A DNA stretch of 37,715 nt. Source: Fusobacteriota bacterium (lineage in GTDB: Bacteria; Fusobacteriota; Fusobacteriia; Fusobacteriales; JBNJFI01). Each line of letters starts with the position of its first letter. Position 1 is the first letter of the stretch. The translations under genes and the position numbers were made by a program. The stretch spans positions 1 to 37,715 of the forward strand of contig JBNJFI010000009.1 in assembly GCA_051746725.1 (NCBI GenBank), in the 5' to 3' direction. Of this stretch, positions 1-33,457 are shown in pieces. The notes below the pieces were generated by a model that did no database searches, was not told the DNA's origin, and saw nothing but the letters and a program-made list of their open reading frames with translations.

Positions 1-1487
1 GTCTTTCCCAGTCCCATGTCATCTGCTAAAATTCCTGAAAAATTATAATTTTTCAGGAATTTCATCCATTTAACTCCCCTTTTTTGGTATGATCTTAATA
101 TTTTCTCTAATTTTTTATTATTTATGGTTATATCATTATATAAATTGTTTTTATAAATATTTTTATTTTCTAATTCTTTTAATTTGCAAAAAATTTCTTC
201 TCTGTTATTAATATTTGAATCCATATTTATATCTTTATCTTTATTTTCTAAATCTTCTTTATTTTTTATTAAATATATTTTACCATTTTTAGAAATTACT
301 CCTGTCTTTCTTATTTGTTTTATTTCATCTTTTTTGAGATTATTTCTCTTTATTTTATAATTTATCTTCAGATAGCTTTTTTGTTTATCAAAACTATAAT
401 CGACATCAGATTTTATTTTTATATCAGATATCCCTAGTTTTGACCAATCCTTATTAATTTTTTTATAGTCTTTTTTGAAAAAGACATCTTTACAATAAAA
501 TTTAGAGTTTTTAAACTCAATATTTTCTCCTTTTAAAAAATTAATAAACTCATTATATTCCTTATTATCCACTTTTTCCCATGAATACTTATCAATTTTT
601 TTATAATCAGTATTAATCTTTAATATATCCTGGTTTTTATACGCCTTATCTTCAAAACGGATAACTGGTATAATAATATATTTTGATTTTATCTTTTTAA
701 ATTTTAAAATATAACTAACATCTTTTTTATATAAAACATACTTCTTTATCTCTTTTCCTAATTTTACATTTGATTCTTTTATATATTTATCTAATTTTTC
801 AAACAAAAAAGCAGGATAAATTTCTTTATTATTCTCAGATAACAATTCTTTATTTTCAATATAAAATATCTCTTTCTTTTTTGAACTAATATCTTTTATA
901 CTTATTTTTTCTTTTTTAATATCAACTTTATAAGTAGATTTTTTTATATCAAGATTTTTATCTTCAATATATAATTTTTTCAATATCTTTATAATTTCAG
1001 GATTTAATTTAAAATTCTTTCTTATAGCTAAAGTATAAATTAATAACCTCTCATAATAAGAAATTTCATCTAATAATCTTTTTATTTTTTCATTATAATC
1101 AGTATATCCTAATATCCAATTTGAAATATCACTTTCATATTGGACTTTGAGTTTATTATTTGATATTTTATATTCATATTTTTGATATGTCATATCCTCG
1201 TTTTTTTTATTTTTTCCATTATAACTTAATATTAAAGTAATTATATGACTACATATTCCATTATAATCACAGCTGCAACTATAAGTAGACTTATATTCAT
1301 AATTTTTATTTATAAATATCTCGACATCTTCATATTTATATCCATTTTTAACTTTTCCAAAAAGAGATACTACACCAGGTAATTCTTTCTTTTGGGAAAC
1401 ATCCTTAATCTTCCCTTTAGAAAAAACATCTTTTCCTTCATTATACATATATTTCTCGCTTATTGCCTTTAAATATTTTTTAATCAT
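1..1487 (-). CDS. SNF2/SWI2-family helicase, N-terminal ~495 aa only (SWIM zinc finger + start of ATPase domain). The gene continues past the window start.
   Basis: A minus-strand ORF runs from ATG at 1487 to the window edge with no stop, so it is absent from the ORF track. The RBS is 'aaaagggaga' (rc of 1491-1500). Hand translation of the last codons at the window start gives '...FLKNYNFSGILADDMGLGKT', the SNF2 motif I / Walker A. A mid-region translation gives 'STYSCSCDYNGICSHIITLIL', a CxC-x(n)-CxH SWIM zinc finger. Confidence 0.8.
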   Translation of the reverse strand, partial: MIKKYLKAISEKYMYNEGKDVFSKGKIKDVSQKKELPGVVSLFGKVKNGYKYEDVEIFINKNYEYKSTYSCSCDYNGICSHIITLILSYNGKNKKNEDMTYQKYEYKISNNKLKVQYESDISNWILGYTDYNEKIKRLLDEISYYERLLIYTLAIRKNFKLNPEIIKILKKLYIEDKNLDIKKSTYKVDIKKEKISIKDISSKKKEIFYIENKELLSENNKEIYPAFLFEKLDKYIKESNVKLGKEIKKYVLYKKDVSYILKFKKIKSKYIIIPVIRFEDKAYKNQDILKINTDYKKIDKYSWEKVDNKEYNEFINFLKGENIEFKNSKFYCKDVFFKKDYKKINKDWSKLGISDIKIKSDVDYSFDKQKSYLKINYKIKRNNLKKDEIKQIRKTGVISKNGKIYLIKNKEDLENKDKDINMDSNINNREEIFCKLKELENKNIYKNNLYNDITINNKKLEKILRSYQKRGVKWMKFLKNYNFSGILADDMGLGK

Positions 1488-1515
1488 AATTCTCCCTTTT
1501 TTTATTATTTAGTCC

Positions 1516-1644: not shown

Positions 1645-2598
1645 TTACATATTCAATTTATTTTTTCCTATTAATTCTTTAATTCCACCAATAGAACTTA
1701 AAACAGAACTAGTTTCATATGGCATAAATACAACTTTATCTGTATCTTTCTGAGCTAATTCTTTTAAATTATCTATATATTTAATTGCTATAAGATAATT
1801 TGCTGGATCCATGGGATCACCATTCATTGATTTAGATATTTTTCCAATTGCTTCTGATTCTGCTTGGGCCACCTTTAATCTTGCTTCTGCCTTACCTTCT
1901 GCATGTAATATTTTCGATCTTCTAACACCTTCTGCTTTTTTGATTTCTGCTTCTTTCTTACCTTGGGCTTCTAAAATAAGAGCTCTTTTAGTTCTTTCAG
2001 CCTTCATTTGTTTTTCCATTGCATCTCTTATTTCTTTAGGAGGTATAATATCTTGTAACTCTACTCTATTAACTTTAACTCCCCATTTATCAGTTGCTTC
2101 ATCTAAAATTAATCTCAATTTATTATTTATAGTATCCCTAGAGACCAAAGTTTCATCTAAATCCAACTCCCCTATTACATTTCTAAGAGTAGTCTGAGTT
2201 AATTTTTCAATTGCATTTGGAACATTATTTATCTCATAAGTTGTCTTCTTGGGGTCTATTATTTGAAAATAAATCAAAGCATTGATTTGTATTGTAACGT
2301 TATCTTTTGTTATTACATTTTGTTTTGGAAAATCATATACAGTTTCTCTCAAGTCTATCTTGCTTACCATCTGAGAAGCATATGTATTCACCCCTTGGGT
2401 ATCTGTTTCGACATATTTCCAAATTATAGTTCTAGGTGAATCTATAATAGGAATTATAAAATTCAAACCACTTTCTAATGTTTTATGATATTTTCCAAGT
2501 CTTTCTACTATCATAACTTCTGCTTGATGGATTATTCTTACCCCTTTTGCTATAAATATTATTACAAAAATTCCTAATACTATACTTATTATTTGCAT
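1645..2598 (-). CDS. SPFH/band-7 (stomatin/prohibitin-like) membrane protein.
   Basis: N-terminal TM helix, then a typical stomatin core ('IDLRETVYDFPKQNVITKDNVTIQINALIYFQIIDP') and a C-terminal E/K-rich coiled coil. The RBS 'aaaaaaggaga' precedes the ATG. Confidence 0.9.
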   Translation of the reverse strand: MQIISIVLGIFVIIFIAKGVRIIHQAEVMIVERLGKYHKTLESGLNFIIPIIDSPRTIIWKYVETDTQGVNTYASQMVSKIDLRETVYDFPKQNVITKDNVTIQINALIYFQIIDPKKTTYEINNVPNAIEKLTQTTLRNVIGELDLDETLVSRDTINNKLRLILDEATDKWGVKVNRVELQDIIPPKEIRDAMEKQMKAERTKRALILEAQGKKEAEIKKAEGVRRSKILHAEGKAEARLKVAQAESEAIGKISKSMNGDPMDPANYLIAIKYIDNLKELAQKDTDKVVFMPYETSSVLSSIGGIKELIGKNKLNM

Positions 2599-2617
2599 TT
2601 TTTATCTCCTTTTTTTA

Positions 2618-3364
2618 TTATTTTACATATTTTTCTAATATTTTATCATATACATCTTTGTCTTTTGTTTTTAACTTTTCAATGGATTTCTGAAATTTAT
2701 TTACGATTTCATCTGAAGTATCTTTATTAAATCCTATAAAGAGCTCCCCTTCTTTTAATAGATATATACTTTCATAGTCATTGGGATTATATCCCTCAGA
2801 CCTTAATGTATAACTTGCAACATTTTCCTCATAAGCCCAAATATCTATTCTCTCTGCATTCAATTTTCTAGCATTTAACTTCGGTGTAGCATCTTCATAT
2901 AGATTTTTATCTGGAACCCCCATCTTTTCCAAAAGTTGCTGTGCTATATCATCTCTAACAACACCAATTTTGTAGTCTTTCATATCTTCAACACCATTTA
3001 TCTCAATTTCTTCTTCTTTTTTAGCTTTTAAGACAACTCTATTTTTTATAACCGGTCCTGCCCACTTAAACTTAGGTTTTCTTTCTTCAGTAAAAGTGAT
3101 ACCAAAAATAACTGTGTTTTTTCTATTCAAAGTTTCATTATAGCCTCTGGCCCAAGGAACTAAGTTAATATCCTCTTTAGTTAAACTCGAATTATTATCT
3201 TCCAAAATGTACTCTACTACATCCACCATTATTCCTTCTAATTTTCCAGTTTTCTCATTTTCATAATTATAAGGTGGATACTGTTCTGTGTACATTTTTA
3301 AATCATTAATTCCAGCACTAAATAGGATGCCTGTTATTAAAAAAAACATAATTACTTTCTTCAT
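2618..3364 (-). CDS. Periplasmic/extracytoplasmic substrate-binding protein, family 3 (amino-acid ABC-type SBP fold), with signal peptide.
   Basis: Signal peptide 'MKKVIMFFLITGILFSAG'. Length (~250 aa) and lobe/hinge pattern ('NAERIDIWAYEE') are typical of SBP_bac_3. It is paralogous to 4226..4987. Confidence 0.75.
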   Translation of the reverse strand: MKKVIMFFLITGILFSAGINDLKMYTEQYPPYNYENEKTGKLEGIMVDVVEYILEDNNSSLTKEDINLVPWARGYNETLNRKNTVIFGITFTEERKPKFKWAGPVIKNRVVLKAKKEEEIEINGVEDMKDYKIGVVRDDIAQQLLEKMGVPDKNLYEDATPKLNARKLNAERIDIWAYEENVASYTLRSEGYNPNDYESIYLLKEGELFIGFNKDTSDEIVNKFQKSIEKLKTKDKDVYDKILEKYVK

Positions 3365-3400
3365 GTCATCAACCCCTTCTATATTTTAAGACTTTTATAA

Positions 3401-3919
3401 TTATTCTCTTATCTTAACACCGCTAAATACTGCACTTATCTTTATTGTAATAGGATCCACATCAGATTTGGAATCAAAATTCTTACTCTTATATTTTCCT
3501 TTCCCCAGAGCAGCAACATTATCATTTGGAAATTTAACTCCTGCAAATGCTGTATCAGCTTCTATTATAACAGGAATATCTGTATCCAAATATATGTCTG
3601 CACTTCCAAATACAACATTGATTTTAACATTTTCTCCAGCTTCTAGTTTATTCAATCGTATCTCAGACCCTGAAAAAACAACATTATATTCTTTAAATTC
3701 ACCATCAAATTCAAAATCTTTTTTTCCAAATACCACTGTGTTTTCTTCAGTTTCTATTTTTCCTAGTCCAATATGAGTCTTACCTGGAAATAACATTGTC
3801 ACTCCTAGGTAAATAAAAAATATTGCCAATGCAATCCTAAAAATTGGTATGTTAATCGGTAATATTACTGAAATTCCTAACAGTATCAATATTGCTCCCC
3901 AAAAAAGGTTCATCTTCAT
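3401..3919 (-). CDS. Membrane protein with one N-terminal TM segment and a beta-rich C-terminal domain (LiaF/DUF2154-like).
   Basis: Two hydrophobic helices at the N-terminus, then repeated 'VVFG../..IDL' beta-strand motifs as in the LiaF C-terminal domain. Assignment is by pattern only. Confidence 0.45.
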   Translation of the reverse strand: MKMNLFWGAILILLGISVILPINIPIFRIALAIFFIYLGVTMLFPGKTHIGLGKIETEENTVVFGKKDFEFDGEFKEYNVVFSGSEIRLNKLEAGENVKINVVFGSADIYLDTDIPVIIEADTAFAGVKFPNDNVAALGKGKYKSKNFDSKSDVDPITIKISAVFSGVKIRE

Positions 3920-3940
3920 TTTTACCTCCTAATCATATTT

Positions 3941-4225
3941 TTAATTTCTTATTTCTATTCCATATTTTTCCATTATTTCTTTATACTTCCCACTTTCTTT
4001 TATTTCTTCCAATCCTTTATTAAATGCATTAATTAATTCTTTATGTCTAGGATTTTTAAACCCAATGGCAATATATAATTCCTCGCTAGATAATGGAGTT
4101 TTAACAAAATCTACTTCATTAAGCAAATCTTCGTCTTCTTGTGCCATTTTTATTCTTCCTACAATTTCATCTTCCAAGGTTAAATCTATTCTTCCAGCTA
4201 TTAATTTTCTTATATTAAATTTAGA
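3941..4225 (-). pseudogene. 3' remnant of a family-3 substrate-binding-protein paralog, in frame with the upstream gene and directly after its TAA stop.
   Basis: Reading through the TAA (4226-4228) of ORF 4226..4987 in the same frame gives 'SKFNIRKLIAGRIDLT(L)EDEIVGRIKMAQ...INAFNKGLEEIKESGKYKEIMEKYGIEIRN*'. This aligns with the C-terminal lobe of both SBP paralogs ('LLAGRIDIF...', '...KFNKGLNKLKESGEYDEF'). There is no N-terminal lobe and no signal peptide. Confidence 0.5.
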
Positions 4226-4987
4226 TTACTTTGCATAATTTCCTTCTAGAGAATTTTGGATAAATTCATCATATTCCCCGCTCTCTTTCAGTTTATTTAA
4301 CCCTTTATTAAATTTTTTCATTAATTCTTTGTTTTCAGGATCTTTACGAGTTAAAATTAATTTATAACTTTTTTGTGTTATAGGCTTAGAATGATGAGTA
4401 AGTTTTCCAAAATCTTCAGAATCAAATTCATTTCTAATCATTTCATAACCTATATCCTTGTCTAAAGGAAATATATCTATTCTTCCTGCTAACAATTTTT
4501 TTAAATTTGTCTCATCATTTGGAGCCTGTTCTATATCTAAGTTCTTCTCCTCTACATACTCATCTAACCCCTGATAAGCATAACCTATAGTAGTCCCTAT
4601 AGTTAATCCTTTTAAGTCATCGATAGTTTCCCAATCAAAATCTGTACCTTTTTTGTAGAAAAATACCGTATCAGAATACATAACGGGATCACTATAATAA
4701 ACATCTTTTTTTCTCTCTTCTGTTTCCGACCATAATATAGATCCATCCCATCTTCCTCTTTTAACTAAATCATATGATCTTGCCCATGGAAAAAAACCAT
4801 ACTCAACTTCTATTCCTTCCTTTGCAAAAGCTTCTGTTACAATGTGTGAAGCCACTCCATAATGCTTATAATTCTCTGATAACCATGGTGCCCATTCCCC
4901 ATTTGTTATTTTTACTTTCTCTCCTAAAGTTAAAGCAGATAATATTAATAAACCGATCACAACTAAATTTCTAATTTTTTTTGTCAT
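4226..4987 (-). CDS. Substrate-binding protein, family 3, with signal peptide/lipoprotein-like N-terminus.
   Basis: N-terminus 'MTKKIRNLVVIGLLILSAL'. Full two-lobe SBP length. The RBS 'aggagggg' precedes the ATG. The stop lies 12 bp after the MCP stop. Confidence 0.8.
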   Translation of the reverse strand: MTKKIRNLVVIGLLILSALTLGEKVKITNGEWAPWLSENYKHYGVASHIVTEAFAKEGIEVEYGFFPWARSYDLVKRGRWDGSILWSETEERKKDVYYSDPVMYSDTVFFYKKGTDFDWETIDDLKGLTIGTTIGYAYQGLDEYVEEKNLDIEQAPNDETNLKKLLAGRIDIFPLDKDIGYEMIRNEFDSEDFGKLTHHSKPITQKSYKLILTRKDPENKELMKKFNKGLNKLKESGEYDEFIQNSLEGNYAK

Positions 4988-4999
4988 TTTAAACCCCTC

Positions 5000-6658
5000 C
5001 TAATTTTTATTAAGTTCCTTTAAATCACCTGAATGAATGGCCTCAACTTCTTTTAATTTAAAAAATTTCACTTTTTCTTTTAACTCACCTGCCATGGATG
5101 TTAAATTTGTCATTTCTTTTATCTGTCTATCTAAAATATGGTTTATTTTTTCAGAAATTTCATAATTATAAGTAGATTTTTCTTCTATTTCTGTTGATTG
5201 ATCTGTTATAGCCCCTATCGCTTCGGTTATCTCCTCAGTTGCCACTACTTCTTCTTTCATAGACTGAGTAATACTAGATATTTCTTCATTATTTTTTCTT
5301 ATCATATTCATTATATTATCTATAGCTTTTCGTATACTTTGACTTATATCCATTCCAGCTTGAACATTTCCTATGACCATATCATTGGCATCTTGCACTG
5401 TTTCTACTTCTTTTTGTATGTCTGTTATTATCTCTTCTATTTTATCAGTCTCGCCATTTGTTTTTTCAGCAAGCTTTCTTATTTCTTCTGCTACAACTGC
5501 AAAACCTTTTCCAGCTTCCCCTGCTCTAGCAGCTTCTATTGCTGCATTTAATGCTAATAAATTAGTTTGTTCAGATATTCCATTTATTGCAACAATTATT
5601 TCTCCAATACGATCTGATAAACCAGAAAGATCTCCAATTTTTTTACTAGATCTTTGAACATTTTTATTAGTCTCTTCCATTTTTGAATTCATCGCTTCTA
5701 TCTGTTCTACGCTTCCTTTGGATCTCTCTAAAGCCTCTTTAGAAGTTTCATTAGTCTTTTCAGTCTTTTCTCCTATATTCTTTGAAGTTGCTGATACCTC
5801 CTGAAGGGTAGCCAGACTTTGTTCAGAAGATGCTGTCTGAGATCGAACACTATCCATAACTTCTTCATTATATTCTTTTAATTGCTTTATTCCTTTTTCT
5901 ACTTTATCTTCTAAATCTTTAAAATACTCACTATCCTCACCTAAAACTATATTATCCATGGTTTTAGATAATTTTTTGTTCTTTTCTTCAACTTTATCAA
6001 CCATCTCCAAAATTCCCTTGATTAAACCATTTAAAATTTCCATAAATTCATTAAACTGATTTGCTAAATTTCCTATTTCATCTTTAGTTTTTATATCCAA
6101 TTTAATTTGTAAGTCCCCTTCAGTACCTTTTTTAAAAGCCTTGGAAAATTTCTGTAATGGTTTAAGTAAAACTGAAGATATTGACGTTATAGTAATTATT
6201 AAAATTATCAATATTACAGCTAAAGATATAATTAAAAAATTTCTAGTTTTAGTTACTTCCTGCATTGCAAATTTATTAGTAAAATGAATTTCAGCTTTAC
6301 CTATAGATTCGCCCTCCTTCTTAATATCAATAACTTCTTTTATTAGGTTTATATTTTCTTCTTTTTCTAATTTACCAATTTCTGTTAAAGTTTCATCATA
6401 GCTATCTATTACCTTTATATAGGTAATATAATTATTTTTTAGGAAAATATTCATATCTTCTTCTAATTGATCATAATCCAAATTCCAAATACTACTTGCA
6501 CTTATTCCTGGGATAGTTCTAGATATCAAGTCTATTTTTTGTTCTAAGTGATTCATGCTTTGATCTTTTTGTACTGAGATCAAAAAAACAATAAAAATTA
6601 TAAAAATTGTTGATAGAATACCTACTGTTGGTAAGATTATTTTATCTCGTAGTTTCAT
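5000..6658 (-). CDS. Methyl-accepting chemotaxis protein (small periplasmic domain, HAMP, MCP signalling domain).
   Basis: Two TM segments bracket a ~120-aa periplasmic region. The highly conserved MCP signalling motif '[34 protein letters not shown]' is present. The RBS 'gggggga' precedes the ATG at 6658. Confidence 0.9.
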
Positions 6659-6685
6659 ATAAATCCCCCCATTTCTAAATCTTAT

Positions 6686-6958
6686 TAGCTAGTTGCAAAA
6701 CTCTAACCATTACATTTAATTGCTTTTATTACACTTACTTTTAAGGTCTGCCCCCCTCTAAATCTCCCCCTAGCAGGGGAGACTATCTTTATTTTCTTTC
6801 AAAATTGATTTTTAGAAAACATCTGAATTATTTAAACCCTTGCTACTTTCTTGCTTATCCCGTCCCCTGCCAGGGGGAAGGCTAGGAAGGGGGGCTTTAA
6901 ATTGTTGGTAATTCTGTGGATAACCTAAAATTTTATTCTTCAGTTTTGCAACTACCTA
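6686..6958. mobile_element. MITE-like element copy 1: terminal inverted repeats 'tagctagttgcaaaact' ... 'agttttgcaactaccta' around a GC-rich core built from two inverted ~35-nt hairpin units.
   Basis: Left terminus 6686-6702 and right terminus 6942-6958 are reverse complements of each other. The core has 'gcccccct...tctcccc-ctagca-ggggaga' (6750-6783) and its inverted counterpart 'tcccc-tgcca-ggggg...aggggggc' (6863-6898). This is strongly GC-rich in an AT-rich genome. It is homologous at both ends to the element at 21625-21876. Confidence 0.5.
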
Positions 6959-6964
6959 TAAATA

Positions 6965-7375
6965 TTATATTAAAATCATCTTATTTCCATCTATCTCAGA
7001 AACCTTTACTTTATCACCTTTTTCTAAATCTTTTTTGCAAATTCCCATCCACTCTTCACCAAAAATTTTAACTCGATAATTCCCGTCATCTAATTTTTTT
7101 ATAACCTCAACCTCTTTTCCTATATAAGTTTTATTATTACTTTTATACTCGGTGTTGGGATTAAAAATTTCTTTTTTTCTCATAAAAAAGAAAATCCCCA
7201 TTGATAAAATTATATCTATAATTATTAACATAGTTATATCTTCTATCCATAAAGATATTATGCCAGTTATCAAAGTTCCAACTCCTATTCCAAAAAATAT
7301 AAAACTAGATGGGGTAAACATCTCTAATATAATTAGAATTATTCCCAAAATAAATAAAACTTCTGTTATTCCCAT
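6965..7375 (-). CDS. NfeD-like membrane protein (TM N-terminus, C-terminal OB-fold).
   Basis: Hydrophobic N-terminal half, then 'YRVKIFGEEWMGICKKDLEKGDKVKVSEIDGNKMILI', typical of the NfeD C-terminal beta-barrel. The RBS is 'ggaaggagg'. Confidence 0.7.
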   Translation of the reverse strand: MGITEVLFILGIILIILEMFTPSSFIFFGIGVGTLITGIISLWIEDITMLIIIDIILSMGIFFFMRKKEIFNPNTEYKSNNKTYIGKEVEVIKKLDDGNYRVKIFGEEWMGICKKDLEKGDKVKVSEIDGNKMILI

Positions 7376-8485: not shown

Positions 8486-10123
8486 TTATTTACAAAATAA
8501 AGGGATTCTTACTTTGAAAGTAGTCCCTGTACCTTCTTTGGTAGTAAAATCAATATTTCCTCCTATAGCTTCAACTAGTTCCTTTACTATCTTCAAGGAT
8601 ATTCCTGTTCCAGCATATACCTTTGTCATATGATGTTCTCCTTGATAAAATGCTTCAAAGGCTCTTTTAGCTACCTCTTCTTTCATTCCTATACCTGTAT
8701 CAGAAACTATTATTGTAATATAATTATTATTACTTTCTTCTATTTTCACTAATATCTCTCCGTCTGGAGTGAATTTTAAAGCATTTTCCATTAAAAAATA
8801 GATTATATGAACTATTTTAAGTTGATCCCCTGTGTAAACCTTATTATTAACGGCTTTATCTATAGACATTTTCACCTTGGCGTTACTTTTTTGTATAGGA
8901 ATCTTAAGTAAATCTCTTACATCTTTGATTAATTCACTAAATTTAAACTTGCTTTCTCTAATAGAATAATCTTCATTGGCAAGATTATTATGTAATAATA
9001 ATTTTTCTATTAAATCTTCAAGTCTATATGTAGAATCTTTTAATATTGATACCAACTTTTCATTTTCTTTTTCAAAATCACTTGGTAAAAGGTCAATCCC
9101 TCCAATAAGACCTGTAAGTGGAGTTCTTAACTCATGGGACATATTACTTAAAAAATCCTCCTTTATTCTCAAAGCTATTTCAGATTTTTTCATCTCTTCT
9201 TCCAGTTCTTCCATTATTTGATTTTTTTTCTGAATTAATTCGATATTTTCAAAATTTACCTTTATAATATAAATAAAAATTCCAAATAAATAATTTTCTA
9301 TAAGATTAAATCCTCTATCTTTTTTTACGTAACAACAAATTTTATCTCCATTGGATATTTCAAAAAAAGAACATTTAATGAGATTTTCACTCTTTTCTTT
9401 TTCCAAAATTTCCTTTTTAGGTATTTGAATCATTTCGCCAGATTTTGATTTTAAATCTCCTAAACCCGATAATAATCTATAACCATTACTTGATTTCGTA
9501 GCTATATACCCTTCTAAATCGTCTTCAGATCTGTCCCCAAAAATTCTTAATAGATTTTCCATTACTCTATCAGAAAACGACCTTAAATTTTCCTTAGCAT
9601 ATACATCAGTTGTACTTTTAATTATCTTTTCTAGCCCTTTTTTGCTCTGTTCCATGACATCGAGATCTCTATATGCCCTCAAAGCAGAAATTGTAGTAGT
9701 TATTAGTCGTTGAGAAGTTAACTCAGTTTTGTTTTTATAATCATTTATGTCATAATCTCTAATAACTCTTTCCTCAGGCGCTTGTCCTGGCTGACCTGTT
9801 CTCAAAATAATTCGAGTTTTATTATTGTGTAGTTTTTCTCTAACGTATTTAACCACTTCTAAGCCACTATCTTCGCTTTCCATTACGACATCCAAAAATA
9901 AAATTGCTATATCTCTCATACTTTCAATAACTTTTTTGGTTTCCTCTCCAGAATAGCAATTTATAATTTTTATCTTTCTTCCTTCGAGATCTTTATTGTT
10001 TAATATTAATTTTGTAATTTTATGGACATCTTCATTGTCATCTGCTACTAATATTTTCCATTCATTTTCACTTGTTTTTTTTAACTTTTTTTTATTTTTA
10101 TGAAATAACATCTTACTTCCCAT
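8486..10123 (-). CDS. Hybrid two-component protein: N-terminal receiver (REC) domain, central uncharacterised region, C-terminal HisKA + HATPase_c histidine kinase.
   Basis: REC: 'KILVADDNEDVHK...ILFLDVVME' carrying the phospho-Asp. HisKA H-box 'SHELRTPLTGLIGGIDLL'. ATPase G-boxes 'VSDTGIGM' and 'GTGISLKIVKELVEAIGG'. The track start is GTG 10132; the ATG at 10123 has SD 'aggaggtg' 7 nt upstream. Confidence 0.85.
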   Translation of the reverse strand: MGSKMLFHKNKKKLKKTSENEWKILVADDNEDVHKITKLILNNKDLEGRKIKIINCYSGEETKKVIESMRDIAILFLDVVMESEDSGLEVVKYVREKLHNNKTRIILRTGQPGQAPEERVIRDYDINDYKNKTELTSQRLITTTISALRAYRDLDVMEQSKKGLEKIIKSTTDVYAKENLRSFSDRVMENLLRIFGDRSEDDLEGYIATKSSNGYRLLSGLGDLKSKSGEMIQIPKKEILEKEKSENLIKCSFFEISNGDKICCYVKKDRGFNLIENYLFGIFIYIIKVNFENIELIQKKNQIMEELEEEMKKSEIALRIKEDFLSNMSHELRTPLTGLIGGIDLLPSDFEKENEKLVSILKDSTYRLEDLIEKLLLHNNLANEDYSIRESKFKFSELIKDVRDLLKIPIQKSNAKVKMSIDKAVNNKVYTGDQLKIVHIIYFLMENALKFTPDGEILVKIEESNNNYITIIVSDTGIGMKEEVAKRAFEAFYQGEHHMTKVYAGTGISLKIVKELVEAIGGNIDFTTKEGTGTTFKVRIPLFCK

Positions 10124-10204
10124 AAAAATCACCTCCTGATCTATTAACCTAATTAAGTATACTATATATTTTTTTAAATATCAAAAGAAATTACCCAAAA
10201 AAAA

Positions 10205-10231
10205 GAAAGGCTTTTAGCCTCTCTTTTTTTT
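10205..10231 (-). terminator. Intrinsic terminator (A-run, hairpin, T-run) downstream of the MIF-like gene.
   Basis: 'aaaaaaaagaaaggcttttagcctctctttttttt' with stem 'aggct'/'agcct' extended by a few pairs. The flanking A8 and T8 runs make it bidirectional. Confidence 0.55.
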
Positions 10232-10256
10232 GCTTTTAATATTATTTTATTTTAAG

Positions 10257-14368: not shown

Positions 14369-14446
14369 ATTTTAAAAGCTAAAGTTTATTTCAAGTTTTC
14401 ATAATTTCACTTCTTTCTTATATTTCTTTACATAAACGCGAGATTA

Positions 14447-14483
14447 TACAAAAAAGGGAACCCAAGATTGGGTTCCCTTTTTT
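14447..14483 (-). terminator. Intrinsic terminator downstream of the repeat-lipoprotein gene.
   Basis: 'aaaaaagggaacccaagattgggttccctttttt' with a 9-bp GC-containing stem 'gggaaccca'/'tgggttccc', flanked by A- and T-runs. Confidence 0.65.
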
Positions 14484-14505
14484 GTATAATTTAGATAAAA
14501 TATTT

Positions 14506-15560
14506 TTATCTTCGTTCTACAGCTATTTTTGCTAATTGTTTTATTAATTGTGACATCAAACTTTGAAATTCTTTATAACTTTCTTCCAAAGACATTTCCG
14601 ATAAATCTTTTCCTTCTACTTTTTCACCTTTTATTGCAGAAAGTAAATTTATTCCATCTTCATAATCTTTTACTATTTCATCTTTTGATCTTTCTATTTC
14701 TACTTCTTGCTTTGCCCCTTCTGAACCTATTGCTTTAATTACTTCAGATATTACCTTTTGAAATTCTTTATAACTTTCTTCCAAAGACATTTCCGATAAA
14801 TCTTTTACTTTTACTTTTTCATTTTTTATTGCAGAAAGAACATTTGATGCATCTTTATAATCTCTTATAATCTCTTCTTTTGATTTTTCTATAGCTATTT
14901 CCCTTTCAGCACCTGCTAATCCTAATTCTTGAACTAACATTGATATTATGTTCTGGAACTCTCTATAGCTTTCTTCCAAGGACATTTCCGATAAATCTTT
15001 TTCTTCTACTTTTTCACCTTTTATTGAAGAAAGTAAATTTATTCCATCTTTATAATCATTTATAATTTCTTCCTTTGATCTTTGAATCTTTAACTCTTGT
15101 TCAGCTCCAGCTTTACCTAAAGCTTCTATTAATTGTGAAATTACATTTTGAAATTCCTTATAAGCTTTTTCTGTTGTCATTTCATCCAATTTTTTCGCTT
15201 CTTTTTTCTCTCCTGTTAGTAAAGATAAAAGTTTTATACCATCTTCATAATCCTTTATGATATCAAGCTTTAATGATAATCCTTCAGTTTCTTGAACTCT
15301 TGTATTTAAAGCTCTAGATAAATGACCCATTATTTTTTCCATTACATTTTGAAATTCCTCATAAGCTGCAGCTGGCGTCATCTTTGTTAAGTCTTTCTTT
15401 TTAATCTCTTTTTCTTCTATTATTGATAACATTTCTAGTGCATTTTCATAATCTTCATTGATTTTGTTAATTGGTTTTTCAAATCCTTGTTTATACAATT
15501 CTTGTCTGATTTGATTATTTGTAGCCTTTAGAGTATCATAAAGTTCCTCTTCTGACATTG
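14506..15560. repeat. ~195-bp tandem DNA repeats (about 5 diverged copies) inside the lipoprotein CDS.
   Basis: The near-identical segment 'ctttataactttcttccaaagacatttccgataaatctttt' recurs at about 14573, 14766 and 14961. The period equals 65 codons. Confidence 0.7.
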
Positions 15561-15786
15561 TACTTACATCTTTGGACTTAACTTCCTCCCCTGTTAATGT
15601 TGCTAATATTTTTCTATTTAACTTATAATCTTTCTTTAAAGTCTCTGACAATTGACTCTCTACTTTCTCCTCTTTTACAGCTTTAGATTCCATAGCCTTA
15701 GATTCTTCCGTCTCACTAGTAGTACACCCTCCAATTAGCAACAATGAAGACAATAAAACACCAAGCATAAAATTTCTCTTTCTCAT
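14506..15786 (-). CDS. Lipoprotein made of about five and a half tandem copies of a ~65-aa helical repeat. Function unknown.
   Basis: Signal peptide plus lipobox 'LLLIGGCTTS'. The repeat unit is roughly 'KDLSEMSLEESYKEFQxxISxLxxxLGxAGAxxExxIExSKEEIIxDYKDGINLLSxIKGEKV'. The RBS is 'gggagggg'. Confidence 0.7.
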   Translation of the reverse strand: MRKRNFMLGVLLSSLLLIGGCTTSETEESKAMESKAVKEEKVESQLSETLKKDYKLNRKILATLTGEEVKSKDVSTMSEEELYDTLKATNNQIRQELYKQGFEKPINKINEDYENALEMLSIIEEKEIKKKDLTKMTPAAAYEEFQNVMEKIMGHLSRALNTRVQETEGLSLKLDIIKDYEDGIKLLSLLTGEKKEAKKLDEMTTEKAYKEFQNVISQLIEALGKAGAEQELKIQRSKEEIINDYKDGINLLSSIKGEKVEEKDLSEMSLEESYREFQNIISMLVQELGLAGAEREIAIEKSKEEIIRDYKDASNVLSAIKNEKVKVKDLSEMSLEESYKEFQKVISEVIKAIGSEGAKQEVEIERSKDEIVKDYEDGINLLSAIKGEKVEGKDLSEMSLEESYKEFQSLMSQLIKQLAKIAVERR

Positions 15787-17742: not shown

Positions 17743-19524
17743 TTATATCATTTCCTCTTCTTTTTCAACAACTCCAGTTAAATCATTGAAGTTGAAATCC
17801 ATTGCTAATATAGCTACAAATTCATCTTTTTCATTGGTTACAGGAGTAGATGCTGTAAAGCATAATTTCCCAGTTGTTTCTGATATGTAATAATCTGTAA
17901 CATGTGTTTTTCCATCTGATAAAACTTGTGAAAACCAAGGTCTATCTGTTCTGTCATCACCTTTTTTGGAAATATTATCAGATTTTTTCTTTAATTCTTT
18001 TTGAGATATATTCTCTGTTATCTGAATACCTTCTGCATCTGTCATATAAACCATTTGTATATATTTATTTTCTTCTATAACATTGCTTAATACCGAACAT
18101 ATTTTTTCATAATCCATACTCTTTATTTCAGGTAATTCAGCATACTCTTTGATAAGTTCTTTTACTTTTTGAGTTGTCTTTTCTCCAATTTTTTCAAACT
18201 CTGTTTTAAATAATTCTGGCATATGTTTTCTTGTTAACTCATACATTTCATCGTTTGAGATTGCAGTAGTTCTACCATTATCATATTGTTCATCAATCCA
18301 TCTATATATTTTAGTTATTTTTGGATGCTTTTTACTTATTTTTTCTTTAGGATTTAAGTTTGCATTTATCCAATGTGTTATCCCGGCAACACCTGACTTA
18401 TCAGTTATACTAACTTTAAGCGGTCTATCTAATATAGTAGTTGTATCAAAAATATTATATATTTCCTCATTTTTTATTGCACCATCTGCATGAATCCCTG
18501 CTCTAGTTACATTAAAATCCTCTCCAATAAAAGGATATCGTCTAGAAATTGCAATTCCCATTTCATTTTGCATAAATCTAGCTATATCTGTGATTACTTT
18601 AGTATTAATAGTTTCATCATGACCTTTAAGAGACATGTAATCCATAATCAAACCTTCTATAGGTGGGTTTCCTGTTCTTTCTCCTATTCCCACTAAAGTT
18701 CCGTTAACTGCTGCTGCTCCATACATCCAAGCAGCTGTTCCGTTAACTAAAACTTTATGAAAATCATTATGCCCATGCCATTCAATTAATCTAGAAGGCA
18801 CACCTAATTCAGATTTTAAAATTTGGATCATTTTAGGAACAGATCTCGGAATTTCAACAGATGGAAACGGAACTCCATATCCCATTGTATCACAAAGTCT
18901 AATCTTAACATCAACACCAGATTTCTTTGAAATTTCCATTAGACCTTCTACAAATGGAATAACCACTCCTCTAAAGTCTGCTCTAGTAATATCTTCTAAG
19001 TGACATCTTGCAACTATCCCTTCACTTACAACAGTTCTAACAACATCTAGATATTTATTAATTATTGTTTTTCTATCACTTTTTAATTTTTTATAAATAT
19101 GGTAGTCTGATACAGATGTTAATATTCCCGTTTCTTTTAATTCTAAGTCTTTAACAAGTTCAAAATCTTTTTTGCTAGCTCTCATCCAACTTGTTATTTC
19201 AGGAAATTTTAAACCTAAATTTTTACAGCTTTCCACTGCTCTTCTATCTCTATCACTATATAGAAAAAATTCAGTCTGTCTTATCAACCCCTTTTTTCCA
19301 CCTAATTCATTTAGATATTTATATAATTTTACAATATGGTCCTCTTTAAAAGGAGCCATTGATTGTTGTCCATCTCTAAAAGTTGTATCTGTTATCCAAA
19401 TATCCTCTGGCATATCTGGAGTTATTATTTTATTTTCCATTTTTATTTTTGGCACTTCTTTATAACTAAATGTATCTCTAAGTAAATTTGGCTTTTCTAA
19501 GTTTATCAATCTGTTATTTTTCAT
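17743..19524 (-). CDS. Fusion protein: N-terminal DRE-TIM metallolyase domain (LeuA/homocitrate-synthase/HMGL-like) plus C-terminal Cache-like (PAS-fold) ligand-binding domain.
   Basis: N-terminus: 'TDTTFRDGQQS' (cf. LeuA 'DTTLRDGEQS') and 'HGHNDFHKVLVNGTAAWMYGAAAVNGTLVGIGERTGNPPIEGL' (cf. LeuA 'HCHND...GIGERAGN'). C-terminus: 'DRPWFSQVLSDGKTHVTDYYISETTGKLCFTASTPV...DEFVAILAMDFNFNDL', the classic Cache/sCache signature (RPWY...DPY.D..TG.LVIT.S.PV...G.LGVDI.L..L). No TM segments. Confidence 0.65.
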   Translation of the reverse strand: MKNNRLINLEKPNLLRDTFSYKEVPKIKMENKIITPDMPEDIWITDTTFRDGQQSMAPFKEDHIVKLYKYLNELGGKKGLIRQTEFFLYSDRDRRAVESCKNLGLKFPEITSWMRASKKDFELVKDLELKETGILTSVSDYHIYKKLKSDRKTIINKYLDVVRTVVSEGIVARCHLEDITRADFRGVVIPFVEGLMEISKKSGVDVKIRLCDTMGYGVPFPSVEIPRSVPKMIQILKSELGVPSRLIEWHGHNDFHKVLVNGTAAWMYGAAAVNGTLVGIGERTGNPPIEGLIMDYMSLKGHDETINTKVITDIARFMQNEMGIAISRRYPFIGEDFNVTRAGIHADGAIKNEEIYNIFDTTTILDRPLKVSITDKSGVAGITHWINANLNPKEKISKKHPKITKIYRWIDEQYDNGRTTAISNDEMYELTRKHMPELFKTEFEKIGEKTTQKVKELIKEYAELPEIKSMDYEKICSVLSNVIEENKYIQMVYMTDAEGIQITENISQKELKKKSDNISKKGDDRTDRPWFSQVLSDGKTHVTDYYISETTGKLCFTASTPVTNEKDEFVAILAMDFNFNDLTGVVEKEEEMI

Positions 19525-21472: not shown

Positions 21473-21562
21473 TTTTTTCCTTTCCTAGATATAATTATTT
21501 TAATCAATATAATTATATCATATTGTTATATTTTTTTCAAAGCTATTAAATTTGAGATTAAC

Positions 21563-21591
21563 TATAAAATCTAAATATAATATGTTATAAT
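21563..21591 (+). promoter_or_regulatory. Candidate extended -10 promoter (TGtTATAAT) reading toward the element and the J-domain gene.
   Basis: 'tgttataat' at 21583-21591 with a weak -35 'tataaa' 17 bp upstream. The same 'atgttataat' motif appears in the permease promoter at 32367-32377. Confidence 0.3.
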
Positions 21592-21610: not shown

Positions 21611-21890
21611 AGAATATAAAATTAGGAAGTTGCAAAACTAAAAAGATAAGATATCAAGTTTTCCACAGATTTATTAACAGAATTAGTTTTGGGGATGCGG
21701 TCGAAGGCTCTTCGCCCTTACATTTCAGATTACGTAGGGATAAAGAATATCAGTTTTTCTGTAAGGGCAAATGGCGTTTGCCCGGGTGTGAGCAGTATAT
21801 AAAAATGGAGGGAAGCCTTAATTATCAGGTCTAATAAATTAAATAAAATCAGTGAATTACAATTTTGCAACTAGCTAGAATATAAAATTA
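21611..21890. mobile_element. MITE-like element copy 2 (21625-21876, inverted relative to copy 1), flanked by a perfect 14-bp direct repeat 'agaatataaaatta' (21611-21624 and 21877-21890).
   Basis: Termini 'ggaagttgcaaaacta' (21625-21640) and 'attttgcaactagcta' (21863-21878) are inverted repeats. About 55 bp at each end align with the copy at 6686-6958 in reverse-complement orientation, including a shared 'ttaagg' 53-54 nt in and a shared 'ctgtgga[a/t]aac' near the other end. The GC-rich core differs and contains hairpins 'cgaag-gct-cttcg' and 'gggcaaa-tggcg-tttgccc'. Confidence 0.5.
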
Positions 21891-22008
21891 AAAGGGGGCC
21901 ATTATCAATACCAATAAAATTGAAAATCTTATAATTAAAATTTTAAAAAAAAATAAAGCTGGATTAACCGAACATAACCTTATTTTAAAATTACAAAAGA
22001 AATCTTTT

Positions 22009-22473
22009 TTGCCCAAGACTTCCCACTCAGATTCACTATCAATATTTCAAGTACATTTTATTTTGTTTAATACTCTTTATAAATTAAGAGAAAAGTTACT
22101 AAAAGCAAAAAAGGGAATTTTAGATATCCATACTTTAGAAATCAAACTTAAGGATTTCAAAAAAGGAAATAAAGGGATCTCAGAATACGATCCCCTAGCA
22201 GAATATTATTTGGATATTTCGAATTTAGAAAATACTACAAAAAAGGATGTAGAAGACCTTTTAGATAGTTTCTGGAAAAAATATTTGGCTAAAGATTATA
22301 AAGTCGATGCTTTAAAAGTTTTGGATCTTAAAGAACCAGTTGATTATAAAACTATAAAATCTAAATATAAAAAATTGGCCTCTAAATATCATCCTGATGT
22401 TGGAGGAGATATAAAAAAAATTCAAATTTTGAACCAAGCTATGGAAACTTTAAATAATTATTATGGAAAATAA
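22009..22473 (+). CDS. J-domain (DnaJ-like) protein with C-terminal J domain. TTG start as called by the track; the true start may be further upstream.
   Basis: C-terminal 'DYKTIKSKYKKLASKYHPDVGGD' with the HPD motif. The reading frame is open upstream to 21892 ('KGAIINTNKIENLIIKILKKNKAGLTEHNLILKLQKKSF...'), directly after the strong RBS 'aaaggggg' (21891-21898). No canonical start codon sits there (ATT 21901 / ATC 21904). Confidence 0.7.
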   Translation: MPKTSHSDSLSIFQVHFILFNTLYKLREKLLKAKKGILDIHTLEIKLKDFKKGNKGISEYDPLAEYYLDISNLENTTKKDVEDLLDSFWKKYLAKDYKVDALKVLDLKEPVDYKTIKSKYKKLASKYHPDVGGDIKKIQILNQAMETLNNYYGK

Positions 22474-32458: not shown

Positions 32459-32935
32459 ATGATATATGGAGTTACTTTTTTATTATTAATCATTTTATTT
32501 TTTAAGGATAAAGAAAAAACTATAAAGGGCTTTAAATTAGGAATAAAAAAACTTTTTAAACAATTACCTGTATTTTTTAATATGATGGCTTTAGTTGCTA
32601 TTTCTTTATATTTTATATCAGATGATTTAATAATAAGATTTCTAGGAGAAGATAGTGGTAATATCGGTATGGCTTTAGGTGCTGGCTTTGGATCAGTAGC
32701 TATTATGCCTGGTTTTATAGCTTTTCCTCTGGCAGGTTTGCTACTTGAAAAAGGAATCTCTTACATGGTTTTGGCGAGTTTTACAAATACTCTTATGATG
32801 GTTGGAGTAGCTAGTTTTCCTGTTGAAAAAGAGTATTTTGGAGTAAAGGTGTCCATCATTAGGAATATTATTGGTTTTATTATGGCTATAGTAGTTGCGT
32901 TAATAATAGGTTTATTATATGGGGAGTTGATTTAA
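32459..32935 (+). CDS. Predicted permease, N-terminal half of a split COG0701/DUF318-type 'two-component membrane permease'.
   Basis: Four or five TM helices and a Gly-rich 'GMALGAGFGSVAIMPGFIAFPLAGLLL'. The stop TAA (32933-32935) is directly abutted by the TTG start of the next ORF. Confidence 0.65.
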   Translation: MIYGVTFLLLIILFFKDKEKTIKGFKLGIKKLFKQLPVFFNMMALVAISLYFISDDLIIRFLGEDSGNIGMALGAGFGSVAIMPGFIAFPLAGLLLEKGISYMVLASFTNTLMMVGVASFPVEKEYFGVKVSIIRNIIGFIMAIVVALIIGLLYGELI

Positions 32936-33457
32936 TTGAAAGAAAAATTACAAAAATTATTGATCCCAATATTATTTTTTGGGGGAATTATAATAAGTTC
33001 AATAATAGGTTTTGCACCTGGAAAGGGAATTGGAATTAATTTTGTTAAATTTTTTAAAAGTATGATCTCATTTTTACCAGCAGTTTTTATAATGATTGGA
33101 TTATTTGAGGTTTTTGTAGATAAAAAAACTATCGAAAAACATCTAGGAGAAGATTCAAAATTCCATGCTTATCTTTGGGCTATATTATTATCAGGAACTA
33201 CTGTTGGAGGTTTATTTGTAGCTTTTCCTGTGGCTCATTCTCTTTACAAAAAAGGGGCTAAAATAAGTATCATTTTTACATATATCGGTGCAGCCGCTGT
33301 TGCGCGTGTTCCCATGACACTTTTTGAAGCTTCTTATGTGGGGTTAAAGTTTACAATTATAAGGTTATCAGTCTCACTTCCATTTATAATAATAAGTAGT
33401 ATCTTGTTGGAAAAATATCTCAAAAATTCAAATTTTAAAATCAAAAAAGTTGCTTAA
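32936..33457 (+). CDS. Predicted permease, C-terminal half of the split COG0701/DUF318-type permease. TTG start, translationally coupled.
   Basis: TM-rich, 'LWAILLSGTTVGGLFVAFPVAHSLYKKGAKISIIFTYIGAAAVARVPMTLFEA'. It starts immediately after the upstream stop. Confidence 0.65.
   Translation: MKEKLQKLLIPILFFGGIIISSIIGFAPGKGIGINFVKFFKSMISFLPAVFIMIGLFEVFVDKKTIEKHLGEDSKFHAYLWAILLSGTTVGGLFVAFPVAHSLYKKGAKISIIFTYIGAAAVARVPMTLFEASYVGLKFTIIRLSVSLPFIIISSILLEKYLKNSNFKIKKVA

Follow-up and report, generated by a model that had tools for sequence, protein, structure and literature searches.

A probable, previously undescribed family of short non-autonomous transposons in environmental Fusobacteriota, with one copy between an NfeD and an MCP gene

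The stretch of DNA analysed here, called the window in the following, is contig JBNJFI010000009.1 (37,715 nt, assembly GCA_051746725.1) from a Fusobacteriota bacterium. It has an overall GC content of 27.7% and nearly all of its genes lie on the minus strand, among them the gene for NfeD, whose start is located 15 nt past the preceding reductase gene, and the MCP gene downstream of it (5000-6658), which encodes a protein 100% identical to MGM0508019.1. The gap from the NfeD stop to the MCP start comprises 306 nt (6659-6964) and, as stated in a preliminary description of the locus, it is filled save for 27 nt (6659-6685) by a single element, here named copy 1 (Table 1). Copy 1 ends in 17-nt terminal inverted repeats (TIRs) that agree at 16 of 17 positions once one of them is reverse complemented, and its interior contains no open reading frame (ORF) of 50 aa or more. 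The flanking direct repeats, previously regarded as diverged, are indeed present and are best read as a target-site duplication of 10 bp that matches at 9 of 10 positions and reads ATAA[T/G]ATTTA in the sense orientation.

A second copy, in the opposite genomic orientation, is found in the same window (copy 2) and has both ends in common with copy 1, in line with the proposal of a repeated element bounded by TIRs. Two further copies come from other Fusobacteriota metagenome-assembled genomes (MAGs), one at 9706-9971 of L155 (identical with L070 and L156; Mono Lake metagenome JGI 3300001335, assembly GCA_964506865.1) and one at 19982-20205 of L162 (GCA_016928735.1). We thus count four copies in three genomes, two of them in the 37.7-kb contig and one each in 14.6 kb and 21 kb of the two other MAGs, with lengths of 273 (copy 1), 255 (copy 2), 266 (L155) and 224 bp (L162). 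All of them carry duplications directly abutting their termini, with a match of 9/10 positions for copy 1 and 10/11 for L155 and a perfect one (11/11) for copy 2 and for L162 (AAGTTAAGATA); with a per-base match chance of 0.31 a perfect 11-bp match would arise by chance with a probability of ~3e-6. The comparison of 9/10 with 11/11 also fits the suggestion that copy 1 is the older of the two insertions in the window. All eight ends bear the motif TAGnnAGTTGCAAAA, which at one of them, the gene-proximal end of L162, has the variant form CGTTGCAAAA. Between copies 1 and 2 one end is alike over ~70 nt (77% identity, E = 1e-8) and the opposite end over ~35-60 nt, and over all four copies the ends are conserved while the cores can barely be aligned. 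ORFs are absent from all four elements, and the genes downstream of them are unrelated, encoding an MCP, a DnaJ-related protein, a NUDIX protein and a secreted protein. With a size below ~500 bp, no coding capacity, TIRs and a duplication of fixed length abutting the termini, these elements look like transposable elements of the miniature inverted-repeat kind (MITEs), and copy 1 is in all probability a non-autonomous DNA transposon of this type, which belongs to a family not described before from environmental Fusobacteriota and landed in the NfeD-MCP spacer. Such a family in these poorly sampled bacteria would account for the 306-bp 'intergenic' stretch. As copy 2 combines a perfect duplication with a very different core, the two window copies represent different subfamilies with common ends, and the combination of conserved ends with nearly unrelated, hairpin-forming and often GC-rich cores may bear on the question of how MITE subfamilies originate.

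In the mechanism that we propose, a DDE-type transposase encoded elsewhere would recognise the termini TAGnnAGTTGCAAAA(C)T and mobilise the elements in trans, making staggered cuts of 10-11 bp in AT-rich target DNA into which the element is then inserted. Copy 1 would have landed inside an operon, in a 23-nt spacer between the NfeD stop and the MCP ribosome-binding site, and its GC-rich nested palindrome would be the subfamily-specific core of an element that is imperfectly palindromic over its whole length. None of the window ORFs contains a transposase domain. Several results weigh against this interpretation: the part of the source genome that was covered, the 37.7-kb contig, shows two copies only; neither an autonomous insertion sequence with these termini in the scans made nor an empty site from the same species was found; and a simple recent amplification of both window copies from one master is excluded by the divergence of their cores. 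Furthermore, the RNA fold of the copy 2 sense strand is no better than that of shuffled sequences (z = -1.0, and +0.9 with flanks), and because of this a conserved role at the RNA level is not established.

Table 1. Positions of the features of copy 1 and copy 2 in the window.
Feature	Position	Strand	Remarks
Putative MITE copy 1, whole	6686..6958	-	273 bp; sense relative to the downstream MCP gene; TIRs, duplication, end homology to copy 2, L155 and L162
Upstream TIR	6942..6958	-	TAGGTAGTTGCAAAACT on the minus strand
Gene-proximal TIR	6686..6702	+	TAGCTAGTTGCAAAACT; sense strand reads AGTTTTGCAACTAGCTA
Target-site duplication, upstream copy	6959..6968	.	TAAATATTAT on the plus strand; includes the NfeD stop codon 6965-6967
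Target-site duplication, gene-proximal copy	6676..6685	.	TAAATCTTAT on the plus strand; 9/10 match to 6959-6968
GC-rich unit 1	6750..6783	+	GC 0.65
GC-rich unit 2	6863..6898	+	GC 0.67; inverted copy of unit 1, with which it pairs in minimum-energy folds
AT-rich central spacer/loop	6784..6862	.	79 nt, GC 0.27
Conserved subterminal block GGTTATCCACAGAATTACCAAC	6904..6925	-	common to copy 1, copy 2 and L155; absent from L162
Local G/C hairpin, 7 bp, followed by T-rich tail	6763..6782	+	terminator-like on the plus strand only, antisense to the genes
Sigma-54-like -24/-12 match TGGTTAGAGTTTTGCA	6694..6709	-	partly made of TIR; copy 1 only; weak lead
MCP Shine-Dalgarno GGGGGG	6665..6670	-	5 nt past the duplication, 15 nt past the element end; MCP ATG at 6656-6658
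Putative MITE copy 2	21623..21877	+	255 bp; perfect 11-bp duplication GAATATAAAAT at 21612-21622 and 21878-21888
Ribosome-binding site GGGGG downstream of copy 2	21894-21898	+	
Sigma-70-like promoter TTGAGA-18-TATAAT (11/12)	21552..21581	+	upstream of copy 2

To reconstruct the empty site of copy 1 we removed the element together with one duplication, which gives ...ATA-TAA-TATTTAGAAATGGGGGGATTTAT-ATG (NfeD-TAA-TATTTAGAAATGGGGGG...); the other reconstructed site reads ...CTAGAATATAAAATTAAAAGGGGG. As the upstream duplication includes the NfeD stop codon, 23 nt lay between this stop and the MCP ATG before the insertion, and since such a spacer leaves no room for a promoter NfeD and MCP formed an operon pair. 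The operon reading is thereby corrected to one in which both were formerly adjacent cistrons. With MCP being an internal cistron without a promoter gap, read-through is the most economical source of its transcription, and judged from the sequence MCP is likely to be transcribed in this way from upstream. The preliminary description had located the element where the promoter of the MCP operon should be, an assumption that has to be given up as no promoter gap ever existed there. It had also offered two sources of transcription, of which read-through is kept as the parsimonious one, whereas a promoter inside the element was not found by a sigma-70 scan of the sense strand. NfeD (6965-7375, minus strand) and its usual partner, a stomatin/SPFH protein (1645-2598, minus strand), are not neighbours here: between them lie the MCP gene, a pair of SBP_bac_3 genes and an ORF of 172 aa without a Pfam match, which is an unusual expansion (1645-7375) of a normally adjacent pair.

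Regarding the other copies, promoter-like sites matching the sigma-70 consensus at 11 of 12 positions precede copy 2 (Table 1) and the L155 element (9571-9599), which places the element within the 5' untranslated region (UTR) in both cases. The L162 element follows the terminator of the upstream operon, with a TATAAT upstream that was seen by eye and is not reported by the sigma-70 scan, and copy 1 is intercistronic. A related locus without the element is provided by L158, where the ortholog of the NUDIX gene (68% aa identity) has only a short leader, while the element is present in L155. For copy 1 no orthologous empty site could be identified, the best MCP homologs (51% and 48% identity) not being syntenic, and the same applies to copy 2, where the DnaJ-related protein reaches only 41% identity with its best homolog; close relatives of the window MAG were not found in the databases.

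Can the element nevertheless act as a promoter donor that drives the MCP/SBP/stomatin genes, either through sigma-70 or through a sigma-54 -24/-12 site built from the TTGCA of the TIR? Chemotaxis genes are often under the control of alternative sigma factors, and TGGTTAGAGTTTTGCA shows GG and GC at sigma-54 spacing ~35 nt upstream of the MCP ATG; MITEs are also known to carry promoters (PMC10969869). We consider this explanation unlikely, as the ancestral spacer of 23 nt means that MCP was expressed without a local promoter, the sigma-70 scan is blank on the sense strand of copy 1, and the sigma-54-like match is absent from the three other copies and has five similar counterparts elsewhere on the same strand, mostly within genes, which suggests a coding-strand bias. 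Judged by the geometry, a -35 directed outward from the TIR would make transcription begin at the Shine-Dalgarno sequence or past it, and copy 2 and L155 already have good promoters upstream of the element. A hybrid sigma-70 promoter facing outward from the TTGCAA of the TIR was also considered and rejected, its -10 falling past the duplication and its start at the Shine-Dalgarno sequence. A different alternative arises from the placement of the copies. In 4/4 copies the same end (..TTTTGCAAC..CTA) points towards the downstream gene, the distance from the end of the duplication to the G-run (GGGGGG, GGGGG, GGAGG or GGAGGGG) is 5, 5, 5 and 7 nt, and the Shine-Dalgarno run lies 15, 16, 16 and 18 nt past the end of the element, in intergenic spaces that before insertion measured ~23, 160, 240 and 110 nt. 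Each of the four sites is either a transcribed leader or an intercistronic spacer, and according to a rough post hoc estimate (order 1e-5 or lower) such a placement is very unlikely under uniform insertion. The elements could therefore be a mobile leader module with specificity for site and orientation, actively directed to the AT-rich stretch a few nt ahead of a Shine-Dalgarno sequence. There the module would provide a hairpin that can be carried into 5' UTRs or intercistronic spacers and might, for instance, stabilise the 5' end or offer a processing site just in front of the ribosome-binding site; we see this as a tentative idea with the chances rather against it. The pattern was noticed after the fact and in four copies only, too few to separate target choice from purifying selection, and purifying selection in compact genomes together with polarity of the opposite orientation could look alike. 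Moreover, no common motif can be recognised in the target sites other than an A/T-rich stretch ahead of the Shine-Dalgarno sequence, the cores lack conservation, and an antisense terminator-like hairpin is present in copy 1 and L155 and missing in copy 2 and L162. It is doubtful that target choice instead of later selection directs insertion to a fixed few nt upstream of the Shine-Dalgarno sequence, always in sense, and so places a large, stable hairpin of variable sequence at the outermost 5' border of the ribosome-binding region; such a mobile leader or processing unit would in effect alter the translation of arbitrary genes or the decay of their mRNA. Should the 4/4 regularity prove to be genome-wide, a transposon homing to the 5' edge of ribosome-binding sites would represent a new target-choice behaviour and also a natural source of modular 5'-UTR hairpins. 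As a further candidate a leader peptide was rejected, because the short ORFs across the gene-proximal TIR use three different frames (by inspection).

The remaining alternatives concern the fold of the core. As described before, one of its two GC-rich units repeats the other in inverted form, with 26 positions identical, 5 mismatched and a single 2-nt indel, and their outer arms GCCCCCCT (6750-6757) and AGGGGGGC (6888-6895) show perfect complementarity across an AT-rich spacer, which is 79 nt and not 75 nt long. Of the two local 7-bp hairpins originally assigned, the first is confirmed (TCTCCCC-CTAGCA-GGGGAGA) and the second has a stem of 5 bp only (TCCCC/GGGGA); in the minimum-energy fold the units do not form two local hairpins, they pair together in a ~29-bp interrupted helix. 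The proposed potential for a cruciform or structured RNA could be substantiated, as the whole copy 1 element folds with z = -6.1 (minus strand) and -4.2 (plus strand) and the core by itself with z = -4.7, with 0/200 dinucleotide shuffles being as good in the former and 0/200 shuffles in the latter. The self-complementarity score of copy 1 is 86, compared to -47 +/- 17.5 for shuffles, and that of L155 is likewise far above its shuffles, the RNA folds giving z = -3.6 for L070/L155 and, for the strands of L162, -4.0 and -4.7. GC-rich stems occur in copy 1, copy 2 and L162 and not in L155, in host genomes of 26-29% GC. The only perfect GC-rich hairpin of at least 6 bp and the only GC-rich long-range 8-mer inverted repeat of the 37.7-kb window are both located in copy 1, so the GC-rich nested structure is, as claimed, absent elsewhere. 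The other strong hairpins of the window are AT-rich terminators, e.g. a perfect 23-bp palindrome at 14443-14490 (AAAAAAGGGAACCCAA/TTGGGTTCCCTTTTTT), and an imperfect 40-nt palindrome at 10173-10255 resembles, like the former, a bidirectional intrinsic terminator between genes. On the sense strand of copy 1 no intrinsic terminator was detected, the hairpins there preceding UUUAGAGG or CGGGAUAA.

The strong folding of copy 1, L155 and L162, the constant sense orientation in leaders and the GC-rich stems in a genome of 28% GC might speak for a structured non-coding RNA or a cis-regulatory leader, riboswitch-like or a small RNA, that is bracketed by repeats by chance. This is highly improbable: no match to Rfam reached the gathering threshold in the window, and in E-value mode copy 1, copy 2, L155 and L162 gave only sub-threshold chance matches, the best one being a spurious miRNA model with 23.8 bits against a threshold of 90. 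The core is conserved neither in sequence nor in fold, with the TIR stem being the only structure common to the copies in the RNAalifold consensus, the downstream genes are functionally unrelated, and the target-site duplications show insertion. The notion of a novel structured-RNA gene is consequently not supported, as the GC-rich core of copy 1 is not conserved in the three other copies. We give hardly any credit to a DNA-level site (cruciform, recombination or DnaA-binding) unrelated to transposition. It could be based on TTATCCACA (6915-6923, minus strand) in the subterminal block, which is the sole perfect DnaA-box-like 9-mer of the window and has variants in the same block of copy 2 (TTTTCCACA, 21659-21667, plus strand) and L155 (TTTTCCATA, ~9745), and on the cruciform potential of copy 1 under DNA folding parameters. 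Against it, the DnaA-like block is missing from L162, the significance of the DNA fold is weak (z = -2.1, with 7/200 shuffles at least as good), and duplications and TIRs are better explained by transposition. A simpler reading than a DnaA site is that the block, found in 3/4 elements, is probably a binding site of the transposase.

Returning to the transposon interpretation, copy 1 is probably co-transcribed with its operon by read-through, and the mRNA would then contain a hairpin in which the TIR stem closes the GC-rich inner helix, while the MCP Shine-Dalgarno sequence, 15 nt further downstream, would stay accessible; the centroid folds of copies 1 and 2 show the Shine-Dalgarno sequence unpaired. 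The GC-rich helix would be a plausible RNase III substrate or decay barrier, which makes a post-transcriptional uncoupling or modulation of MCP-operon expression, of the kind demonstrated for Correia elements, the likeliest effect. By analogy with Correia and ERIC elements, the copy 1 hairpin, placed between NfeD and MCP, would most likely modulate the expression of the MCP operon and not initiate it, and a role of copy 1 as promoter supplier is unlikely. Precedents for MITE hairpins in mRNA that are cut by RNase III and for other roles of MITEs have been described (PMC10969869; PMC2649163).

Comparing copy 1 and its relatives to known systems, the Correia elements (CREE/NEMIS) of Neisseria are similar in being small, non-coding, bounded by TIRs and often located just upstream of genes, and they resemble the family also in being co-transcribed, with TIRs that form a long RNA hairpin. 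They have a length of ~100-155 bp, 26-bp TIRs and a TA duplication. In contrast to the elements described here they possess a conserved core with an IHF site and occur in hundreds of near-identical copies, whereas the Fusobacteriota elements are 224-273 bp long, with unrelated 17-nt TIRs, 10-11-bp duplications, hypervariable cores, a fixed orientation and no sequence similarity to Correia. Cleavage by RNase III and promoter or IHF effects are documented for Correia elements (PMC2649163; PMC10969869). Membership in the Correia/CREE family was rejected on account of the duplication of 10-11 bp, the unrelated TIR and the core that is not conserved, the Correia values being taken in part from PMC2649163. 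The ERIC/IRU and YPAL elements of enterobacteria and Yersinia are also imperfect palindromes over their whole length in transcribed intergenic regions near coding sequences, and for ERIC orientation-dependent effects on mRNA stability are known (PMC10969869, section 4.1). They differ in phylum and sequence, in their location, which is in most cases close to a 3' end or stop codon and in either orientation, and in their conserved cores.

Conserved ends recognised by a transposase and a variable, unrelated interior are also features of the mobile insertion cassettes and MITEs of IS231 (IS4 family) from the Bacillus cereus group. The ends of IS231 read CATGCCC... and are unrelated to TAGnnAGTTGCAAAA, and IS231-derived elements generate a target duplication of 10-12 bp (ISfinder family tables). 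The MIC231 elements differ in usually carrying passenger genes, and no IS4-family partner was found for the Fusobacteriota elements. The terminal repeats of the IS6/IS26 family may resemble ours in the (C/T)(A/T)GTTGCAAA(A) core. Members of this family have the terminal repeats GGCACTGTTGCAAA and GGCTCTGTTGCAAAAA, 8-bp duplications and ends beginning with GG (ISfinder). A derivation from IS6/IS26 was rejected as the duplications are 10-11 bp instead of 8 bp and the termini begin with TAG instead of GG. A duplication of 10-11 bp is reminiscent of the IS4/IS231 or ISAs1 families, and neither IS6/IS26 nor IS4/IS231/ISAs1 fits the Fusobacteriota elements fully. REP/BIME (REPIN) sequences likewise are GC-rich hairpins in intergenic or intercistronic mRNA and possible decay barriers; unlike our elements they measure only 20-40 nt, have no TIRs plus duplications, owe their mobility to RAYT (IS200-like) transposases and are in most cases found 3' of genes. 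Integron attC sites have RYYYAAC / GTTRRRY core sites, no target duplication and cassette ORFs; this possibility was rejected because the termini (GTTGCAA) do not fit GTTRRRY and the elements have duplications and lack a cassette ORF.

Genome contigs were scanned with the pattern AGTTGCAAAA-N(215-245)-TTTTGCAACT, and among the matches listed only L070 was real while the others were due to chance. A metagenome scan with TIR and subterminal block yielded 25 loci, all 25 of them chance matches, and two scans of viral contigs gave chance matches and an unrelated operator-like palindrome. No match was obtained by blastn against plasmids, and ~120 kb of other Fusobacteriota-like contigs (L113, L139-141, L159, L163, L164) contained no copies. 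Searching 1.18 Mb of fetched sequence with an nhmmer profile of the element revealed no new copy and missed L162, which was recovered by a TIR word search only; copies with diverged cores thus escape profile searches. As a paired-end search pattern the terminal motif can be written as TAGNNAGTTGCAAAA together with its reverse complement. In the literature we found no report of MITEs in Fusobacteria or of the copy 1 TIR. An apparent full-length element at 182-1562 of the window was rejected as a chance pair inside a helicase-like ORF. A long ORF at 1-1490 (minus strand) runs off the left contig end and its end encodes the helicase motif I ..ILADDMGLGK.., being SNF2-like by inspection only. The phage-like IMG/VR contigs L150 (9494-9750), L153 (9322-9578) and L154 (4218-4481) carry a paired palindrome AGTTGCAAAA(T/C)GCAACT (AGTTGCAAAATGCAACT) ~255 bp apart, which brackets a short region next to TTGACA promoters; these pairs are operator-like and linked to the MITEs by a common word only. 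In the JGI metagenome contigs L128 and L137 (~760-830) close-set TATAGTTGCAAAA.../...TTTTGCAACTATA repeats make overlapping palindromes.

The DnaJ-related gene past copy 2 (21889-22473, plus strand) has its first ATG, GTG or TTG at 22009, where a Pfam DNAJ_related match begins at profile position 36, while its frame has no stop from 21892 onwards. According to the NCBI protein P0126 (184 aa) the gene would start with an ATT at 21919, and ATT/ATC codons are found at 21901 or 21904 directly past the GGGGG ribosome-binding site. Judged from the sequence, the gene seems either to use a non-canonical start codon or to be damaged at its 5' end.

Three further loci of the window drew our attention. 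The 426-aa ORF at 14506-15786 (minus strand), which has no Pfam match, contains at least three tandem repeats of 195 nt (65 aa) with 74-76% identity at 14515-15204. In the 593-aa ORF at 17743-19524 (minus strand) an HMGL-like (aldolase/carboxylase) domain is joined to a dCache/PDC sensor domain at the C-terminus, an odd pairing or possibly a fusion artefact. At 32459-33457 (plus strand) two abutting ORFs, 158 and 173 aa long, both match the ArsP_1 permease profile in its N-terminal half and may represent a split or duplicated permease gene or a frameshift.

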